Origin: a phage | Length of the DNA: 44,007 nt | Reading direction: 5' to 3' (one strand) | Sequence record: PX907401.1 | Shown here: in pieces, positions 3,450-44,007 of the stretch | How positions within the stretch are numbered: the stretch's first letter is position 1 | How the letters are laid out: the number at the start of each line of letters is the position of its first letter | Made by a program: the position numbers and the translations under genes | Notes under the pieces: generated by a model | What the model was told of the DNA's origin: nothing | Seen by the model: the letters and a program-made list of their open reading frames with translations, nothing else | Database searches by the model: none

Positions 3450-3623
3450 TTATTCAGTCTCAGACGAGGGGGGCCGTTGACCCCCGTCTAGTCTGAAAGA
3501 CTGGGGTTTGTCCCGCCTGTCCCGCTCCTCTGGAAGCCGCGCCATCCGGGGCGGGACGGGGGTGCTGTCCCGCTTTGTCCCGCCCCTTGTTTGTCCCGCT
3601 TTCTGTCCCGCTTACTTTATGCA
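3450..3623. repeat. Dispersed repeat element, copy A (about 174 bp; second copy at 31279-31452)
   Basis: Near-identical 5' 75 bp and 3' 48 bp shared with copy B; contains six direct TGTCCCGC heptamers plus one inverted, and hairpin-capable segments. Confidence 0.85.
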
Positions 3624-3696
3624 GTTTTATTGCATAACTATTCATTACAGCTACACGACACGGCAACCAATACGACCAGTTAAAAACGCCCAAAAT

Positions 3697-3836
3697 GGCA
3701 ACCAATGCGCGCAAAATTTAACCTTTTAGCGATATGGGAATTCCCATATCGGCAACCAATGCGCGCAAAATTTAACCTTTTAGCGATATGGGAATTCCCA
3801 TATTGGCAACCAATGCGCGCAAAATTTAATCTTTTA
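3697..3836. repeat. Tandem direct repeat, 54-bp unit x about 2.6, each unit with a perfect 18-bp palindrome ATATGGGAATTCCCATAT and a GCAACCAAT motif
   Basis: Units at 3697-3750, 3751-3804 and partial 3805-3836; palindromes at 3732-3749 and 3786-3803; overlaps the primase stop codon (3826-3828). Confidence 0.9.
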
Positions 3837-6090
3837 AATCATCATCGGTCGCTGAAAGCGTGATGGGTATGTTCGTTTTGATGACGATATTAGACGACCC
3901 ATAGATGGCCCCGGTGTGTGGGTCTGTGTAAAACCCAAGCACGCCGCGCTCGACCATATCGTCTATTGCCTTCGTCGATGTGCCACCTTTTGCCAATCCC
4001 GCCTGGCGGACGATTGCCGATTTACTGAATCCGGTATGGTCCGGGTTATCTTCCATCAGTTTTTCCAGTGCCGCATAAAGCACTTTCTCTTTTTCGTTGC
4101 GCGGTCCGGCGGCATTCTCTTCCTTAACTGCGGCTTTGCCAGCGGCCTTTGCTTGCTCAATGGCGAACGGTGCCAGGGCGACCGGTACGAGATAAAGAGT
4201 CTCGTCGCGTGGCGTGGATGCAATTGGCTTGACGTCCCAACCGGCAACCACGTCGCCGAAGTCAGGCCCGGTGCTGGTGGACTGGTGTGATTCGAACGCT
4301 TCGGACTTGCGGAGATCCACCTTAACCTTGCACTTGAGCAGGACGAAGCCGCGCGGCGCTTGCTTGATGCCGTTACGTGCCTTTTCGTGATACAGGTTCA
4401 ATTGGCCCGGCTGATTGTCGTCCGGTTGCTCCAGGAAGAACGCAGAATCGACAGCGCCATGCAGCGCGCCGGACCCACGGGGAGATCTGCTGCCGTTTGC
4501 ACCCTTCGCCGGGTGGTGGATGACGCCCGCACTGCCGCCTGTATTTTCCGCAATGGCCTTCAGCGCTTTGACCACTTCACCCATATCGCTGGCGTTGTTC
4601 TCGTCGAACGGTTTTGCATTGGCGGACCGCAGCGCAACAGTCTGGTTGAGTGAGTCGAACGCCACCAGGCCAACCGGTTCGCCGTTAGCGGTGCGGTTGA
4701 TGAAGCTGATAACTTCGCGCAAGCCGGACTTGTTGGTGATATCCCAGCCGCGTGACTGCAGATCGATAATGTGCAGCTTGTCGAGGTCGTGCTCATATTT
4801 AATCTGCAATGCTTCTTTGCGCTGGTTAGAGGCTTCACCACCTTCCGCATCGAAATAGAAGCAATGAGACTGGACGACCTTCGCACCGCCGAACGGAATA
4901 CCGGCGGCAACCGCGCCCATCTGCCCCAGCACATAGAAAGACTTACCAATGTTCGACTCGCCCGCCATATACCAGGTCGATTTGAAGTTAATCAACCCCT
5001 CGATAATCGGGTCGTGCTTACTGAACAGCGCAACCGGCTCGTTATCCAGATCCGCATCAGTACACACGCCGTACTCGTCGCCGTCTCCGACCGCATCAAC
5101 GATATGTTCATAGCACGATTCCACTTCCTCATCGTCCAGTCCCGGAAGGATGGCGGCGATTTGCTTACGTGACATGTTGTGCGGCTCGACGTTCAGGTGG
5201 TCCGGGATCCCGATAAGACGTAGCGCCAGGTGCTGGTGTCTGTTCAGTTCCGAGCAACACTCGTTGCCGGTGTGCATACACTTGAAACGGATCTCGCCAT
5301 CCTTAACCATGATAGCGGTTGACCCTTCGCCACTATGCAGATGTTCGTTCGGGCATGGCACTTCATAACCCCGACCGGACGACAGCGGTTCGAATCCTGC
5401 CTGGAAGCACCAGTCCAGAATGCCGTCCGCCACGCCGTCATCGCCCTGGGTTAGTTCGCGGCGTACTTTCTCTTTTTCCACTCCCAGCTTATCAGCCAGG
5501 CGAAGCAGACGACGGACGCGGGCACGCTTGCCGTAGTGGCACTTAATAACGGACTGCTGGTGTGGCAGGTACATCAGGCGGTTTGTATCTTTCGTGCAAT
5601 CGTCGAAGTCCACATCTGACAGACCCAGTTGGTGTAATAGTGCATACTGGACGCGGCCCAGGTCTTCAGCCGGTACAGGCTTGTCAGTGAGCACCAGGAA
5701 ACGGGCGCAACGCGTGCCGCCCTTCAGCGGGTGGCGGTCGCCGGTGGTGGTGTGAAATACGTGTTCCAGACCCGAGTCGATGAACGCCTTACGGCAGCGG
5801 CGCAGGGTGCGGGTGTCGGTGCGGTCAATATCAAAGAACAGGATCGAGCGGTCCACCGCACTGGTCTTACGACGCAATCCGTCACTGGTATACGCCACGA
5901 TGCCATCGGCCTTACGCTTGCGGCGCGCATACTCGGCTTTATCTTCCGTCTTGTTGATATGCACCGAGGAGATTTCTTTCGCATCTTTGATAAATTCGAA
6001 AAACTCATCGGTCGTCATCTGGAAGTTTTCCGCCCTGGCTTTTTCGCCTTTTTTAGCGGGTTTTGTTACAGCGAATTTAATCAAGCTCAT
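3826..6090 (-). CDS. Bifunctional DNA primase/helicase (primase-like N-terminal domain, P-loop ATPase C-terminal domain)
   Basis: 754 aa; FFDIDRTD acidic motif in the N-terminal domain; Walker A GESNIGKS and Walker B-like VAFDSL in the C-terminal domain. Confidence 0.8.
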   Translation of the reverse strand: MSLIKFAVTKPAKKGEKARAENFQMTTDEFFEFIKDAKEISSVHINKTEDKAEYARRKRKADGIVAYTSDGLRRKTSAVDRSILFFDIDRTDTRTLRRCRKAFIDSGLEHVFHTTTGDRHPLKGGTRCARFLVLTDKPVPAEDLGRVQYALLHQLGLSDVDFDDCTKDTNRLMYLPHQQSVIKCHYGKRARVRRLLRLADKLGVEKEKVRRELTQGDDGVADGILDWCFQAGFEPLSSGRGYEVPCPNEHLHSGEGSTAIMVKDGEIRFKCMHTGNECCSELNRHQHLALRLIGIPDHLNVEPHNMSRKQIAAILPGLDDEEVESCYEHIVDAVGDGDEYGVCTDADLDNEPVALFSKHDPIIEGLINFKSTWYMAGESNIGKSFYVLGQMGAVAAGIPFGGAKVVQSHCFYFDAEGGEASNQRKEALQIKYEHDLDKLHIIDLQSRGWDITNKSGLREVISFINRTANGEPVGLVAFDSLNQTVALRSANAKPFDENNASDMGEVVKALKAIAENTGGSAGVIHHPAKGANGSRSPRGSGALHGAVDSAFFLEQPDDNQPGQLNLYHEKARNGIKQAPRGFVLLKCKVKVDLRKSEAFESHQSTSTGPDFGDVVAGWDVKPIASTPRDETLYLVPVALAPFAIEQAKAAGKAAVKEENAAGPRNEKEKVLYAALEKLMEDNPDHTGFSKSAIVRQAGLAKGGTSTKAIDDMVERGVLGFYTDPHTGAIYGSSNIVIKTNIPITLSATDDDLKD

Positions 6091-18086: not shown

Positions 18087-18553
18087 AACTACTGATTTGT
18101 GATCTTGATGGCGTTATTAATGGTTCGAGTGATGCACGCGCCGACCTGGTGCCGGGTATAAAAACCAAATCAACATTTTGGGCAAAGTGGCACAAAGCGC
18201 ATGCACGCGAAGACCTGAACATGGATATGCTGCCGCTGTTGCGCATGTACAAAGAGCAAGGCTTCGAGATCGCGTATCTGACAAACCGGCAGCGCGAATG
18301 TTGGGACACGACCGCCGAACAACTGGAGGTCTTCCCCGCAGGCCGGTTGTTTATGCGCCACATGCTGGACGACACCCCGCCGCCAGAGTTTAAGGCGTGC
18401 GCCGTGTTCAAAATGGTCTGCTATGCGGACGTATCGGAACTGGTCGTCATTGAAGACTGTCCGAAGAACATCGCGGCAATTCGTCGGGCGTGCAGCGATC
18501 TGGTCCCGAAAATTTATGCGATAAACGTTGAAAAATTCACTTGCAACCAATAG
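18083..18553 (+). CDS. HAD-superfamily phosphatase-like protein
   Basis: 156 aa; N-terminal LICDLDGVI (HAD motif I DxDG). Confidence 0.55.
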   Translation: MKLLICDLDGVINGSSDARADLVPGIKTKSTFWAKWHKAHAREDLNMDMLPLLRMYKEQGFEIAYLTNRQRECWDTTAEQLEVFPAGRLFMRHMLDDTPPPEFKACAVFKMVCYADVSELVVIEDCPKNIAAIRRACSDLVPKIYAINVEKFTCNQ

Positions 18554-18570
18554 GTTGGTTGCACTATAGT
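18541..18570 (+). promoter_or_regulatory. Promoter (-35 TTGCAA, 18-bp spacer, -10 TATAGT) with inverted GCAACCAAT / TTGGTTGC motifs
   Basis: TTGCAACCAATAGGTTGGTTGCACTATAGT read directly; overlaps the 3' end of the upstream gene. Confidence 0.45.
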
Positions 18571-22358: not shown

Positions 22359-22394
22359 AAATAACCTCGTTAAAAAGGGGCCGAAGCCCCTATA

Positions 22395-27950: not shown

Positions 27951-28585
27951 CTTACGAATCCAATAGCTGTTTTAAGGGTGGCGGACACCGTTGCCGTGTT
28001 ATGCCCGTTGTCGGTGTACGACAAGCTCGAACGCTCGACCACGAATAAACCTGTTTCGCCATCCGGCGCGGTGACGACAAACGGCTTGACGAAGTGCCCG
28101 CGAAGGAAGTTGTAAACCAGTTTGGGGTTGCACCACTTGTCAGTAGTCAGCCCGATGAATTGCACGGGGAACTGTTTCGTTTCGGCGTTCGGGCCGTCCG
28201 CGATGTTCTGACCGTAACCGTTACCGAATTGCAATTCCTCGGACCGGAAAGCCAACTGCACGTCTCCGCCGCCTTGCAATTGCATGTGCCAGTAATAAGG
28301 CCATTCGTTTGACCGCGGGTCGTGCGCTTCGATTAGCTCATAAGCCGCACCGGCTTTTGTCGGTCCTGCCCAGTTATCAGCCAGGGTGATGACGGTGTTA
28401 GAGTTGAATGCCGCAATTTTTCCGGTGTAGTCGTTGCCGTCGATGCGGGTAAATACGCGGACCTTCCCGATCTCGCTCAGGAACGCCGTTCCCGCGCCCG
28501 TGACGGTCTTACTTCCCTTAGTTAGTGTGATTGTACCTTGTGCCATAAAAAAGCCCCCACGTTGTAGTGAGGGCCATTTTATCAT
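27947..28585 (-). CDS. Minor tail protein (lambda M-like position)
   Basis: ATGA overlap with the tape-measure stop; alternative internal start at 28546 (MAQGTITL). Confidence 0.5.
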   Translation of the reverse strand: MIKWPSLQRGGFFMAQGTITLTKGSKTVTGAGTAFLSEIGKVRVFTRIDGNDYTGKIAAFNSNTVITLADNWAGPTKAGAAYELIEAHDPRSNEWPYYWHMQLQGGGDVQLAFRSEELQFGNGYGQNIADGPNAETKQFPVQFIGLTTDKWCNPKLVYNFLRGHFVKPFVVTAPDGETGLFVVERSSLSYTDNGHNTATVSATLKTAIGFVR

Positions 28586-31215
28586 CGTTTGTAAAGTACA
28601 CCACCCGGTTTCGTCGCCTTCACGATCTCGGCCTTGACCGACTCAGTGATTTGCTTTCCGAACGCCTGCGCGGTGCGCGGGTCTGGTCCGCTAACACTGG
28701 TATCCGTCTTACCGGTCCCCATGTTAACGTTGGTCGTTACAATCATTCCCCCTACACCACCGGCAGCGGCAACTCCCAGTTTGCCGTCCGGGCCGCGCTT
28801 CAGTGGCATGATGGCTTCGGGGCCTGCCTCCCCCATCAATCCTGCGCCCTTAGCGAACGCCTGGACGCCATAACTGAAAAAGGTTGGCTGGCTTACCACT
28901 TGCCCCGAATAGGCTGCGAGATTGCCTCCTGCGTACGCTCCGCCGTCCGCATTCTTAGTGAGGCCGGAGAAGATAGCGCCGAACAATCCGTTTTTGCCGC
29001 CGAAAGCGCTAACGATGGACTTGAACGCCTGCGATGTAGCCAGCTTGATTAATTCGCTCAGGATGGACTTTACCATTTCCTTTGCGTTCAGCTTGCCAGT
29101 CTCGAAAAACTCGTCCATCGTGTCCTGCATAGCGCCGAACGTGAATTTTGTGAGTGACGACATCTGCATATAGCCGTTACCCATTTCATCAACACTATCG
29201 CGAAGCCCGCGACTAAATCCATCCCATAATGAGGCGTTAGCACCGGTCTGTGCTTCCTGCACTTCCCGCAGCGTAGACACCGCCTTGTCGATAGCGGTAT
29301 CACTAGCGCCGACACGCTGCAAGCGGTCTATTAGCTGCAATTCTTCGCGCAGGTTAGCCGCTTCGCGCGTAGACAGTGCGTAGCCCGCAGCGGTGGCCTT
29401 TAGCTCGGCGTTCTGATTCTTGAGGAACGCGTCGACCTGGGACTGGGCTTTGATCTGCTTCTCTTTCGCATCCAGTAATTTGGCTTCTTCGACAATCTGC
29501 TCGCGCACTTCCTTCACGCGCCCAAACTCCGCCATCTGCTGCTTTTCCGCTGCCGTTAGTACCCTTTCTTTGCTTGCAGCGATTAACTGCTCATTATCCG
29601 CGATCAGCTTGTTTAGTGCCGCTTGCGCGCGTTGCGTGCGGGTCTGCGTCGATGCGTTGGCTTCGATCTGCTTTCCAGACTCACGAAGCTGGGCTAATTC
29701 GCTTCGCGCGACTTCCAGCATTTTCAGCCCGGCATCGACTCGAACTGCCGCCGCTTTTTTTGGTGCGGGGTCTTTGTAACGCTCGTTGACCTGCTTCACC
29801 GCCTCAGCAAGCTCTTTCTCGTCAATCACGCCGCGCTTATTCAGCAAATTTAGGCGGGCGATCTCGTCTGCTCGCCGCTTCGCGTTGGTTGCGTACTCCT
29901 TCTCAAACGCGGCGCGGTCGCGGGCGGTGCGGTTTGCCTCTTCGTTCGCCTTTGCTGCTTCGTCAGCGGCACTTGCGTTGTCTCGCTCTGCACGGTTGCG
30001 CAGGGTGAGCGACGCCACTACTTTTTCCTGGGCTACCAGTTCGCTGTAAAGCATGTTAATACGCGCTTTCTGCGCTTCGGTCATCACCCCACCGGCAGCG
30101 TTTACCGCTTTCATCTCGGCATAGTAAGCCGTGGTCAGTCGCTGCAATGATTCACGCGCTTTCATCTCTGACTCATTCGAGGACTGCGCGCGCCCGACAT
30201 CCAGGATGGCATCCCACATAGATTTAGCTGCCGATGTAACGACGTTCATCGACCGCTCAAGCGTACCCATGTTGGACTTGATCTCATTGGTCATAGTGGT
30301 AAACGACGCTGCGGCTGTTTTGTTAGCCAGCGCCACCGCTTCGGTTTCGCGACCAGCCGTCACTAGTGACTGCACCTGCTGGATCTGCGCTTCGTTTACG
30401 ACGTGATACTTATCCGCCAGCGCACGCAGTCCGCCAACGGGGTCGGTTGACAGCTTCGCCACCGCCGCCACCACATCCTCGATCGGCTGGCTGGACACCT
30501 TCGCAAAGTCATTAACTACCTTAGCCAATGCGCCGAAGTCACCACCCGCTTTCACACCCGCCGCCGCCAGCGCCTGGATTGTGTCACGCGTCTTGCGGAA
30601 TGATCCGCCCATTCGCTCGGCGTTCTCGGATAACACCAGGATCTGGTTTGCAGTGAGGCCGGAAATGTTGCCGGAAAGCGCCAGCGTCTTGTTAAGCGCG
30701 GCGACCTGGTTCTCTGCGCGGGACGTAATTGCCACGCCCACGCCTAACGTTGCCGTTACGGCGGCAAGGCCGATCCCTACTGGGCCGAGGAATCCCGCAA
30801 CATAACGCAGCGTGTTACCCAGTCCGCCGAACGCCCCAGTTAACTGCGGTAACTGCTGAAGCATAACGCGGTGTACTGGCATCCCCATCTCAAGCGTAAC
30901 TGCGATATCCTGTAACTGGAATGCGGCGTTACGCGAGGCAAAGCCCAGGTTTTTGGTCGACATGCCTAACCTGTTGGCGAGTCGTTCCTGTTTCGTCATG
31001 CCATCGGCGGCGCGCTGCGATTCGTTTGCCAGCTTTTCCATTCCGCCCGCGGCGTCACTCGTCACCTTTTTGGATTTGCCGAGGGTGTCGTTTAATTTCT
31101 TAACCTTGTTTTCTGTGTTCTCGGATTTCTGTGCGAAGGAGTCCAGCACAGTATTTGCCGTTCTGATTTGTGCAACATCAGCCTTCAGCGTGATGCCTGC
31201 TGCTTGATCTGCCAT
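28582..31215 (-). CDS. Tail tape measure protein
   Basis: 877 aa, largely alpha-helical with coiled-coil character; hydrophobic Gly-rich C-terminal region; follows the G/GT chaperone. Confidence 0.85.
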   Translation of the reverse strand: MADQAAGITLKADVAQIRTANTVLDSFAQKSENTENKVKKLNDTLGKSKKVTSDAAGGMEKLANESQRAADGMTKQERLANRLGMSTKNLGFASRNAAFQLQDIAVTLEMGMPVHRVMLQQLPQLTGAFGGLGNTLRYVAGFLGPVGIGLAAVTATLGVGVAITSRAENQVAALNKTLALSGNISGLTANQILVLSENAERMGGSFRKTRDTIQALAAAGVKAGGDFGALAKVVNDFAKVSSQPIEDVVAAVAKLSTDPVGGLRALADKYHVVNEAQIQQVQSLVTAGRETEAVALANKTAAASFTTMTNEIKSNMGTLERSMNVVTSAAKSMWDAILDVGRAQSSNESEMKARESLQRLTTAYYAEMKAVNAAGGVMTEAQKARINMLYSELVAQEKVVASLTLRNRAERDNASAADEAAKANEEANRTARDRAAFEKEYATNAKRRADEIARLNLLNKRGVIDEKELAEAVKQVNERYKDPAPKKAAAVRVDAGLKMLEVARSELAQLRESGKQIEANASTQTRTQRAQAALNKLIADNEQLIAASKERVLTAAEKQQMAEFGRVKEVREQIVEEAKLLDAKEKQIKAQSQVDAFLKNQNAELKATAAGYALSTREAANLREELQLIDRLQRVGASDTAIDKAVSTLREVQEAQTGANASLWDGFSRGLRDSVDEMGNGYMQMSSLTKFTFGAMQDTMDEFFETGKLNAKEMVKSILSELIKLATSQAFKSIVSAFGGKNGLFGAIFSGLTKNADGGAYAGGNLAAYSGQVVSQPTFFSYGVQAFAKGAGLMGEAGPEAIMPLKRGPDGKLGVAAAGGVGGMIVTTNVNMGTGKTDTSVSGPDPRTAQAFGKQITESVKAEIVKATKPGGVLYKR

Positions 31216-31278
31216 TGTGCAGTCCCCTTTTTTATGCAGTTGCCGACTGTCATTGTATCAGCGAATTTCAAACAAACC

Positions 31279-31452
31279 TTATTCAGTCTCAGACGAGGGG
31301 GGCCGTTGACCCCCGTCTAGTCTGAAAGACTGGGCTTTGTCCCGCTTGTCCCGATCGGCTGAAAACCGCGGCAGCACTGGCGGGGATGGGGTGCTGTCCC
31401 GCTTTGTCCCGCCCCCTGTTTGTCCCGCTTTCTGTCCCGTTTGGTTTATGCA
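31279..31452. repeat. Dispersed repeat element, copy B (see 3450-3623)
   Basis: Same orientation as copy A; lies in the intergenic gap between the GT stop (31512) and the tape-measure start (31215). Confidence 0.85.
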
Positions 31453-31511
31453 CGAAATTCGAATAGGTATGCACATTTCATGGGTGGGACAAAACGGGAC
31501 GTCCCGCTTCA

Positions 31512-32203
31512 TTATGCGGGGTTCTGCTGCGCCATCTCATCAAGCGCTATTCGTTCCATTAGCTTGATATCTTTAAACGCGCGCTGTTCGTTTTCGATAC
31601 CGTGCATCTTAAATAACCACTCCAGCACGCCGTAGTCGATGCCGTATGCGCCACCAAATCCGGTGCGCCATTGCGTGGAGCAATCTGTGAAGACTGCGAC
31701 TACCTTCGCGTTGTCGGGCCACAGCGCAACAGGTGGACAAACATCTTCGGGGGCCGCGCCCCATAAACTTGCGGCTAAATCTTCGGAGGGTGGCGGCGGG
31801 CCATAAAAGCGTCGCGCCGCCTCAATTAGTTTTTTTCACGCAACCCCATCAGTTCGAGATAGTACGACGTGTGGAACACACCGAACGCGCGTGGATAGTT
31901 GACCACCAGGCGGCGGACGTTCTCCGCGTTAAATTCGTCCGGCAGATTCCAGCCTTCTGCGACGTGCATGATGGCCTCGACCATAACGTTAAAGCCGTCC
32001 GGGTCATTGTCGTCATATTCCGACAGCTTGCGTTCGGTGTCCTGCATGGTCTGCGAAAACTCGTCGATCGGGCGGTGGCGTACGGTAAACGTCATCTTGC
32101 CTGGTTCGATCTCACCAGGGCGCGGGATCTCAATCGGCAGCTTAAAGGTTGGCTTAGGGTCAAGTGTGAAGAGTGGTGCTTTAGCCATTGTAGTATTCTC
32201 CAA
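31512..32203 (-). CDS. Tail assembly chaperone GT-like fusion made by programmed -1 ribosomal frameshift
   Basis: Hand translation of the -1 frame after the slip gives a stop-free 105-codon extension (LIEAARRFYGPPPP...EMAQQNPA) ending at 31512. Confidence 0.65.
31826..32203 (-). CDS. Tail assembly chaperone (lambda G-like)
   Basis: 125 aa between the major tail and tape-measure genes; ends ...MGLREKN with slippery heptamer A AAA AAC just before the stop. Confidence 0.75.
   Translation of the reverse strand: MENTTMAKAPLFTLDPKPTFKLPIEIPRPGEIEPGKMTFTVRHRPIDEFSQTMQDTERKLSEYDDNDPDGFNVMVEAIMHVAEGWNLPDEFNAENVRRLVVNYPRAFGVFHTSYYLELMGLREKN
31829..31835 (-). other. Slippery heptamer A AAA AAC for -1 frameshifting (G to GT)
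   Basis: mRNA reads CGU GAA AAA AAC UAA; X XXY YYZ aligned to the zero frame. Confidence 0.65.
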
Positions 32204-32257
32204 TAAAAAAGGGGCCGTGCTGGCCCCATATTATCACTCGCTATTTAAGCGACCAAA

Positions 32258-32983
32258 TCAAGACAATGCCTCGACCAGATCCTTACGGTAGATAACCATA
32301 TCAGACTGCATGGTCAGAGTGGATTGTACCGTTTCCACGTTGTTTACTTCAGCGGACGGAATCTTCTGGAAAGATACCTTAGCTGGGTAAATACGAATCT
32401 CACCTTTGCCGCTTGCTGCAGCTGGGTTAGTGAACTTAATCACAGTGGTTTTCTGTGTGTCGTCCAGGTCTTCCAGGATTGGGCGGATCGGGTCTTCTTC
32501 GTCGTGGGTGAAGGTGTAAGTCTGTACCAACGGGTTTTTCGTGGTGTTCAGACTGATCGCGGTATTCACCTGTAACGGCTGGAAGGTAGTCGTCTGCTGG
32601 TCGCCACCAGACACGGCAACGTTAGTAATGTAAGGGAAGTCGATAAAGCCCGACACCTTCACCACTTCGCCCGGAGTGCCTACGCTGAAAGCGCCGGTCG
32701 GGTATTTTGTGACGTCTTTGGTGTCGAAGCGCGCCAGCGTAACGTCGTTGATGTCCACTTTACCCACGATGAATGCGCGGTTAAGCGCTCGGACCCACGG
32801 GGTTTTAGTGAACATAACAACGTCGCCAACAACCAGACCATGCGAAGCCGCGCAGGTAATTACGCAACCTTGCGTAAGGTCGGAGATCGACGCGGCGGCG
32901 TTGGTAGCTGCCGTAACCGCGATGCCGCTGCCTAATACGGACCCGATCTGGACGCTGGACCCGTTGGGAAGTTGATAACCCAT
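32258..32983 (-). CDS. Major tail protein
   Basis: 241 aa; located directly upstream of the G/GT chaperone pair. Confidence 0.7.
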   Translation of the reverse strand: MGYQLPNGSSVQIGSVLGSGIAVTAATNAAASISDLTQGCVITCAASHGLVVGDVVMFTKTPWVRALNRAFIVGKVDINDVTLARFDTKDVTKYPTGAFSVGTPGEVVKVSGFIDFPYITNVAVSGGDQQTTTFQPLQVNTAISLNTTKNPLVQTYTFTHDEEDPIRPILEDLDDTQKTTVIKFTNPAAASGKGEIRIYPAKVSFQKIPSAEVNNVETVQSTLTMQSDMVIYRKDLVEALS

Positions 32984-36977: not shown

Positions 36978-37066
36978 GCTATCCCCCTGGGATTGTGGCA
37001 AAGCGGGCCACCCGCTTGACTTCACGCCTTAATATTATCAGCGATAAAAATAATCGCAAAATTCGC

Positions 37067-37096
37067 TTGCAATCCGCGTATTGGTTGCACTATATT
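37067..37096 (+). promoter_or_regulatory. Promoter for the clamp-like gene (-35 TTGCAA, 18-bp spacer, -10 TATATT) with tandem ATTGGTTGCAC motifs
   Basis: TTGCAAtccgcgtATTGGTTGCACTATATTGGTTGCAC read directly. Confidence 0.5.
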
Positions 37097-42961: not shown

Positions 42962-44007
42962 TCATTTCAACATTTCCGGGCTAATGGTTAAGCGCGCTAC
43001 TTCGCCGTAGTTGGCGCTATAGGTGATGACGTTTGCGCTGCGACCTGACATCCAACCGCCACGACTGGCGTAGGCGTCTTTCGCTGCGAGCGTCCTGTGC
43101 TGTTCAACAATCATGTTGCGGGATTCAACAATCTTCTGGTGGTGCAAATGGCCTACGTGCGCGTAGCTGTATTCGCTCGACCCGAAAGCCTGTCTGAATT
43201 TAGCGATCATAACCTGCTCGATAACATCGAATCGCGCTTTGTGCCCGTGGTGGAAAAATAGTGTGGTCTTACCGTGCTGCACCATTTTGTAGACGTCCGG
43301 GGACGTATCCACATCGACGCGCGGCTCGTTCTCGTACAGCGTGTTGAACATCTCAGCAAGCCAAATCATGCCCGACTCGTCATGATTCCCCTGGACGATT
43401 AGCAGTTTGACTTTGTGGTGTTTTTGCAGCGCCAGTTCGACGACGTTGCGCACCATGCGAATCATGTAGCGGACCAACTTCTGGTATCGGGTGTCGGCGT
43501 CCAGTATGTGACCACTTGCCGGAGTGACAGCATCGAGGCTATCAAAGTGGGCCATATCACCGAGGATATTAATTACGGCAGTGCCTGCGTCCGGGGCGCG
43601 GGCGAAGGCTTCGACAAACCAGCGGTAAAACAGGTCTTCGGCAATCGCCATATCCCAGTCTTCGCCAGTCTCCTCGCCCCAGGCCAACATGCCCAGGTGG
43701 AAGTCTGACACAGTGTACAGGTTGAGTAGGTCGAGCGCCTGGATCGGGACTGGCGGGGCGCTTACTGGTGCTGCCGGTGTGATTTCGCTGTTCATGCCCT
43801 CGACAACAGCGCGCATGGCTTCAAGCTGGCGCTCCTTGTCCTGCTCAGTGATAACCCACGACATGACCTCTTCGCCATTTCCGCGCACCAGGGCCGATAC
43901 GCGCTTAACCCCAAACCCATCGGCAACGCGCTTGCGTATTACGGCATCGTTGCCGTGTCCAATGCCTTTTTTCGACAGGCGGGCTTTCCGCATATAAACA
44001 TTGCGTA
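42962..44007 (-). CDS. Calcineurin-like metallophosphoesterase, truncated by the window edge (N-terminal HTH segment is at 1-168)
   Basis: Motifs SDFHLG, GDMAHFD, GNHDE, GHLHH read in the translation; the ORF runs into the terminal repeat. Confidence 0.75.
   Translation of the reverse strand, partial: RNVYMRKARLSKKGIGHGNDAVIRKRVADGFGVKRVSALVRGNGEEVMSWVITEQDKERQLEAMRAVVEGMNSEITPAAPVSAPPVPIQALDLLNLYTVSDFHLGMLAWGEETGEDWDMAIAEDLFYRWFVEAFARAPDAGTAVINILGDMAHFDSLDAVTPASGHILDADTRYQKLVRYMIRMVRNVVELALQKHHKVKLLIVQGNHDESGMIWLAEMFNTLYENEPRVDVDTSPDVYKMVQHGKTTLFFHHGHKARFDVIEQVMIAKFRQAFGSSEYSYAHVGHLHHQKIVESRNMIVEQHRTLAAKDAYASRGGWMSGRSANVITYSANYGEVARLTISPEMLK
43938..44007. repeat. Terminal direct repeat, identical to 1-70
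   Basis: Same 70-nt string as the window start. Confidence 0.9.

Follow-up and report, generated by a model that had tools for sequence, protein, structure and literature searches.

How many proteins does the tail chaperone gene of this phage encode? The window, that is, the whole 44,007-nucleotide stretch analysed here (sequence record PX907401.1), carries a G-like gene that ends CGU GAA AAA AAC UAA, and an open frame lies beyond its stop codon. A preliminary description of the sequence proposed that a programmed −1 frameshift of the G/GT type on A AAA AAC joins this frame, T, to G. We probed this proposal through the protein families on both sides of the stop codon, the substitution pattern in relatives, the downstream RNA structure and homologous loci in distant phages.

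The window is the genome of a Dhillonvirus (HK578-like), an E. coli phage, and the tail genes discussed here lie on its minus strand. Positions 1–70 and 43938–44007 are identical, so the record represents a whole genome that was circularly assembled with an overlap; the true unit length is 43,937 nt. A 1.1-kb region around G–T matched 159 phage records at 80–100% identity, nearly all of them from Escherichia/Shigella Dhillonvirus phages (for example HK578, SSL-2009a, JL1, EP23 and Sodalis phage SO-1). The pair is flanked by a Phage_tail_3 gene upstream and a TMP_2 gene downstream (Table 1). The terminator-like hairpin between the major tail gene and G has counterparts annotated as terminators at the equivalent site in the CS16 and Motto records, and it probably reduces transcriptional read-through into the chaperone and tape measure genes. 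T had been placed just before the tape measure gene, which is indeed the next gene downstream, but 296 nt of non-coding DNA separate the T stop from the tape measure start at 31215.

The G product matched Pfam family Phage_TAC_4 (PF08748; E=3e-23, 82.8 bits against a cut-off of 21.1) over its residues 1–120 and profile positions 1–124 of 124, and phrog_569 with E=1e-39. Its reading frame had initially been drawn up to position 32203. The frame is real, but the TTG at 32203 is likely to be merely a mechanical boundary and ATG 32188–32186 the start codon, because a Shine–Dalgarno-like GGAGA lies 8 nt upstream of this ATG and because it fits the identical 363-nt, 120-residue CDS annotated in relatives. 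Translation in the 0 frame ends ...MGLREKN, and the last codons, CGT GAA AAA AAC TAA, place the stop at 31828–31826.

Translated in the −1 frame from 31835, the same DNA reads KK-LIEAARRFYGPPPP...MAQQNPA and then TAA at 31514–31512, with no stop before it. Counted from CTA (31829–31827), the frame remains open for 105 sense codons, the length that the preliminary description had obtained by hand. Joined to G, this extension would complete a fusion of 225 residues, GT, with the junction ...LREKN-LIEAARR.... The T peptide matched Pfam DUF1799 (PF08809) over profile positions 1–80 of 80 (E=3e-21, 76 bits, cut-off 26) and phrog_680 (E=9e-31). A further profile, phrog_17368, is 213 positions long; its first half matches G and its second half T, and fused versions therefore exist among annotated phage proteins. 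A protein database search with the fusion returned three matches only, and a PDB sequence search returned none.

Table 1 Coordinates of the features discussed, in window numbering
Feature	Position	Strand	Evidence or remark
Major tail (tube) protein gene, upstream neighbour	32258..32983	−	Pfam Phage_tail_3, E=1.5e-31; phrog_584
Intrinsic terminator-like hairpin and T-run, between major tail gene and G	32211..32227	−	GGGGCCAGCACGGCCCC followed by TTTTTT
Shine–Dalgarno-like GGAGA, 8 nt before G start codon	32197..32201	−	Read from the sequence
G gene, tail assembly chaperone, 120 aa and TAA stop	31826..32188	−	Pfam Phage_TAC_4; phrog_569; CDS of relatives
TGA in −1 frame, directly 5′ of heptamer	31836..31838	−	Frame reading
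Slippery heptamer A AAA AAC, in X XXY YYZ phase with G	31829..31835	−	Sequence; conservation
0-frame stop UAA abutting heptamer, overlapping the first two −1-frame codons (CUA, AUU)	31826..31828	−	Sequence; conservation
T extension, 105 codons (LIEAARRFYGPPPP...MAQQNPA) and TAA (31514–31512)	31512..31829	−	−1-frame translation; DUF1799; phrog_680
Candidate stimulatory stem-loop, GGCGGCG (31821–31815) with CGCCGCC (31798–31792)	31792..31821	−	Folding; starts 7 nt after heptamer
Perfect palindrome CGGGACGTCCCG then TTTTG, just after T stop	31495–31506	−	Annotated as rho-independent terminator in HK578 and as repeat_region in ‘rolling’
174-nt dispersed repeat, two copies 89% identical	31279–31452 and 3450–3623	− (both)	One copy between T and tape measure gene, the other after helicase-primase gene and the three 54-nt tandem repeats
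Extended −10-like promoter element TGATACAAT	31252–31260	−	About 35 nt upstream of tape measure start; kept in all aligned relatives
Tape measure protein gene, 877 aa, downstream neighbour	28582..31215	−	Pfam TMP_2, Tape_meas_lam_C; phrog_24
Three tandem 54-nt repeats containing TTGGTTGCC, iteron-like	3689–3850		Overlap 3′ end of replicative helicase-primase gene (3826–6090)

We then considered where the two frames could be joined. The heptamer at 31835–31829 fits X XXY YYZ, as first proposed, and it is the sole site, with a single in-phase position, at which the 0 and −1 frames are both open: a shift is possible only there, because the TGA at 31838–31836 closes the −1 frame just 5′ of the A-run and the 0-frame stop follows just 3′. 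A random 7-mer fits X_XXY_YYZ with a probability of about 0.004. The −1-frame TGA is not essential, since SECphi18 has CGA in its place. Other in-phase heptamers followed by long −1 frames occur in the window; the one inspected (22373–22379) precedes an ordinary neighbouring gene with a terminator before it and its own ribosome-binding site and ATG, so a heptamer and a −1 frame are not diagnostic by themselves.

T could instead be a protein in its own right, translated independently of the slip, for example by termination–reinitiation at the AUU that overlaps the UAA. The HK578 record draws its gp16 in this manner, from the last base of the G stop (a non-start codon), and several records call short internal open reading frames. 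However, the T frame contains no ATG, GTG or TTG for about 70 codons, which is most of the DUF1799 domain, and no Shine–Dalgarno sequence. Nor do relatives keep a near-cognate start in the codon that follows the stop, which is AAG in T1-like phages and AUC, ACU or AGG elsewhere, whereas the heptamer is conserved; and the phrog_17368 profile spans both G and T. Separate translation of T is thus highly improbable.

A homopolymer-length sequencing error that splits a single reading frame, or a T region that is only a dead remnant, might produce the same picture, and homopolymer runs are error-prone in some sequencing chemistries. The Dhillonvirus sequences speak against both. The region was matched by 159 independently sequenced records, and in 23 of the 23 sequences compared the A7 run and the frames are identical, the heptamer is invariant and T is open. 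Across 22 distinct relatives, variable sites in the T region fell on −1-frame codon positions 1, 2 and 3 in the ratio 23/9/68, and neither of the other two frames had a peak at third positions; the corresponding figures for G in its own frame are 12/7/81. This pattern shows that the T frame is under purifying selection. In phage ‘rolling’, AAC TGA replaces AAC TAA, a change that retains the frame 0 stop and also the frame −1 leucine (CTA to CTG), as would be expected if both frames are constrained. The −1 relation moreover holds in all the distant relatives that we fetched. The codon-position pattern, the open T frames, the invariant heptamer and the ‘rolling’ stop change exclude an artefact or a decayed gene, and we give this explanation next to no weight. 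None of the nine Dhillonvirus records inspected annotates a joined CDS: apart from HK578 gp16, the T region appears as ‘hypothetical’ fragments of 31–38 residues, as a mislabelled tape measure protein or as nothing at all.

Distant homologues extend the comparison. A tblastn search with the T part matched 1,158 phage records, and outside Dhillonvirus the homologues, at 30–40% identity, include those of T1-like Drexlerviridae, Klebsiella Webervirus, Ralstonia phages, Xp10 and Pectobacterium phage Koroua. At every homologous locus fetched, T is offset by −1 from the reading frame of the upstream chaperone gene. The 3′ ends of G read GAA AAA AAC TAA in Dhillonviruses, GTA AAA AAC TAA in T1-like phages, GAG GGA AAC TGA in Xp10, CGG GGA AAC TGA in 17 Ralstonia-type loci (47–97% identity), CAA AAG TAA in Koroua, CAA AAG CCT TAA in Diencephalon and Re28-1, and GCA AAA GTT TAA in VAC110. 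When ten reconstructed fusions were aligned, no gap fell across the junction, the leucine at −1-frame position 1 was nearly invariant and the alanine at position 4 was invariant. In a metagenomic survey with a degenerate DNA pattern for the T motif TQWR-x4-G-x2-G-x-DY, we obtained 120 viral contigs, 114 of them analysable. The upstream reading frame ended in an in-phase heptamer in 103 of the 114, A_AAA_AAC in 64 and G_GGA_AAC in 39; the 103 T peptides are all distinct and 27–47% identical to that of the window. Inspection of the 11 unclassified contigs revealed KKL or GKL junctions in most of them as well.

The same comparison bears on a route through RNA polymerase. Were one A added during transcription of the A7 run (31836–31830), some mRNAs would encode ...REKK-LIE...; the seven consecutive A residues invite this reading, and fusions of this kind are known to arise also by slippage on A/T runs (PMC5009743). 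Yet the homologues preserve a phase-specific heptamer and not a long homopolymer, with A6 in T1-like phages and GGGAAAC in Xp10, the Ralstonia types and 39 metagenomic members. A conserved downstream hairpin and an abutting stop are translational signals, and efficient transcriptional slippage usually requires runs of 8–9 or more. We regard transcriptional slippage as very unlikely.

Programmed −1 ribosomal frameshifting on A AAA AAC thus very probably yields both G (120 aa) and GT (225 aa) from this locus. Gene order, the two protein families, the start-less T frame, the substitution pattern, the invariant heptamer and the distant homologues all fit a lambda-type G/GT frameshift and support the proposal with which we began. 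From this arrangement we infer the occurrence of the shift, its frequency and the roles of the two products, as follows. Most ribosomes would translate G and terminate at UAA. A minority would slip back by one base on the heptamer, tRNA-Lys moving from AAA to AAA and tRNA-Asn from AAC to AAA, and would then read CUA AUU GAG..., adding the 105-residue DUF1799 T domain to give GT. By analogy with lambda, the G parts would cover the tape measure protein, recruitment of the major tail protein would fall to the T domain of the scarce GT, and the slip frequency would set the G:GT ratio needed for tail assembly.

A downstream stem-loop or pseudoknot had been suggested as something to look for, and a search yielded a candidate stem-loop 7 nt after the heptamer (Table 1). 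It folds with −17 kcal/mol for 60 nt, an energy that is not significant against shuffled sequence (z=−0.56) and that we did not count as evidence on its own. Positions 31835–31791 have the lowest third-position variability of the whole G–T region among Dhillonviruses, 2 of 12 third positions varying as against 67% overall (P=3e-4 per window; the minimum of 212 windows). The hairpin sits in conserved Ala-Ala and Pro-Pro codons, and its 5-bp core is invariant; in T1-like phages, a hairpin in the same register carries two compensatory pairs (C-G and G-C to U-A and U-A). At the register of the window, the hairpin is broken or absent in IME253, Xp10 and Koroua. Across the 103 diverse metagenomic members, folding stability between −150 and +240 peaks in the 40-nt segment that begins 0–6 nt after the heptamer, with a mean of −14.7 against about −9 kcal/mol and a GC-corrected residual of −2.65 ± 0.56; stem spacers are mostly 3–8 nt, and stem sequences differ widely between lineages. 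Within a subfamily of 20 sequences, the helix is 77.5% paired and its covariation is 0.314 compared with 0.254 in shuffles, none of the 500 shuffles reaching 0.314, although a +3 slide pairs almost as well. RNAalifold found almost nothing in a mixed alignment, and Rfam gave no match at the gathering threshold, with chance-level matches only at E≤1. Synonymous-site conservation, a family-wide stability minimum and modest covariation make the 3′ stem-loop a probable conserved stimulator, supported but not proven. This GC-rich element, probably together with the abutting stop, would act by pausing the ribosome on the heptamer.

The position of the stop codon is itself conserved. It abuts the heptamer directly in 92 of the 103 contigs, with all three stop codons in use (TGA 71, TAG 13, TAA 8), and one sense codon intervenes in the other 11. 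The stop overlaps the first codons of the T frame, and codon usage there is skewed: the first −1 codon is CTR in 92/103, with CTA Leu at 20% there compared with 4% elsewhere, and where the second −1 codon is arginine it is AGR in 19 of 19 cases as against 13.5% elsewhere in T. The abutting stop therefore looks selected, kept at the cost of rare T-frame codons. One reading of this bias is a post-translocation slip, in which tRNA-Asn stands on AAC in the P site with the stop in an empty A site and competition with the release factor sets G:GT; the product, ...KN-LIE..., would be the same. Koroua, with CAA AAG TAA, allows re-pairing for a single-tRNA slip only, and nearby stops have been seen to influence −1 shifting in other cases (PMC5009743). 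Against this stand the 11 members with a sense codon before the stop, the similar Diencephalon and VAC110 types, and the conservation of the full X_XXY_YYZ, not of A_AAC alone, which favours two-tRNA slippage; besides, selection could hold the stop next to the heptamer to spare G an extra C-terminal tail. We consider the post-translocation slip less likely than not. Sequence cannot decide between it and the two-tRNA slip, and the protein product is identical. More broadly, the Phage_TAC_4/DUF1799 family may share one cassette, consisting of X_XXA_AAC, an abutting stop and a hairpin 3–8 nt further on, in which the stop would be a selected functional part despite the rare AGR, CTA and ATA codons that it brings to T, and in which competition between release factor and post-translocation slip would set G:GT. 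We put this forward tentatively, as a possibility that we do not at present favour.

How does the predicted frameshift compare with known systems? Lambda G lies likewise between the major tail and tape measure genes, and a −1 shift near its 3′ end, on an X_XXY_YYZ heptamer (G_GGA_AAG), fuses a T domain to it, with rare GT expected beside abundant G; the roles of the two proteins and a G:GT ratio of 30:1 are described for lambda (Levin, Hendrix & Casjens 1993; Xu, Hendrix & Duda 2004, 2013, as summarised in PMC5009743). A fixed ratio of G to GT, a need for both proteins in tail assembly and their absence from the virion characterize the conserved G/GT systems of long-tailed phages. However, BLASTP detected no similarity between lambda GT and the Dhillonvirus fusion (best E=1.1), and the Pfam families differ, Phage_TAC_4 and DUF1799 being the fusion’s only Pfam matches. 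The lambda heptamer has AAG as its last codon and is 5 codons upstream of the G stop, whereas here it ends AAC, the stop abuts and a conserved hairpin follows. The Dhillonvirus pair would thus work like lambda G/GT by analogy, and is not a sequence-level member of that family.

True homologues are found in the T1-like phages (Drexlerviridae: BrunoManser, Motto, Reinasaurus, Skenny), for which a G/GT-like frameshift has already been described (PMC6763657); a related Edwardsiella phage, eiAU, is also said to contain one (PMC3025963). They share homologous G and T, with T about 35–39% identical, the A AAA AAC followed by UAA, and the hairpin register with its compensatory pairs. They differ in having GUA, not GAA, before the heptamer, and hence A6 in place of A7, and in a short gap of about 40 nt to the tape measure gene; some of their records annotate both pieces as chaperones. 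Xp10 p15/p16 and the Ralstonia/Burkholderiales prophage-like homologues have the two protein families, the −1 relation and a stop abutting the heptamer in common with the window, but have G GGA AAC as heptamer and UGA as stop. In Xp10, the place expected for the tape measure gene is occupied, downstream of T, by an HNH endonuclease gene (1513–2016 of the fetched locus), a further instance of an insertion at the T/tape measure junction.

Bacterial frameshift sites provide a guide to the likely efficiency. In E. coli IS1, the identical AAAAAAC has been proven to support low-level −1 ribosomal shifting, which fuses the upstream insA product to the downstream insB′ domain, and a downstream RNA structure has been proposed there as a possible stimulator; the proteins, a repressor and a transposase, are unrelated to those here (PMC12428005). 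In E. coli dnaX, too, a 3′ stem-loop accompanies −1 shifting on an A-rich heptamer, and a downstream element of the dnaX type, a stem-loop 5–9 nt after the heptamer, is present in the window with a spacer of 7 nt. An upstream Shine–Dalgarno-like stimulator contributes in dnaX, which shifts at about 50%. At the Dhillonvirus locus, UGGGGU ends 7 nt upstream of the heptamer, and the last G of its GGGG is a varying wobble base (G, A or C among Dhillonviruses). The dnaX heptamer differs too: it is the highly shift-prone A_AAA_AAG, compared with which A_AAA_AAC shifts far less readily in E. coli (PMC5009743). Efficiency at the Dhillonvirus site may therefore be low, which suits a product wanted at a few per cent, with G:GT at about 30:1.

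The 296 nt between T and the tape measure gene contain several further elements (Table 1). The palindrome just after the T stop belongs to a module of roughly 80–90 nt that is present in two tandem copies in close relatives; the window has one copy, so its intergenic region measures 296 nt compared with 374–406 nt in most relatives. In the 174-nt dispersed repeat, six (4 + 2) units of (G)CGGGACA precede a long imperfect hairpin (about 31332–31284), the loop of which varies among relatives. Essentially all of the 159 Dhillonvirus records carry both copies of the repeat, no other record in the phage collection contains it, and it has no Rfam match; a regulator-binding array, an RNA element and a processing or termination site are possibilities. 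A 77-residue open reading frame at 31279–31512 was rejected as a gene, as it has no family match and overlaps this repeat, and a promoter-like match at 31540–31511 is at chance level. The conserved extended −10-like element suggests that a separate promoter, downstream of the repeat, serves the tape measure gene. Elsewhere in the window, the tandem 54-nt repeats at the helicase-primase gene are a possible replication origin, and a 37-nt element with the inverted repeat TTGCAACCAAT...TTGGTTGCA and an operator-like look occurs twice, at 18532–18568 and 37058–37094.

The G/GT frameshift itself is textbook, and the Dhillonvirus member adds nothing unexpected to the paradigm; this member is new, and because the GT fusion is missing from the nine GenBank records inspected, the annotation of a common group of E. 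coli phages can be corrected. The family also supplies a natural series of over 100 divergent members, in which only two heptamers occur together with an abutting stop and a co-varying hairpin, and which could show how stop codon and 3′ structure tune low-level −1 frameshifting in bacteria.
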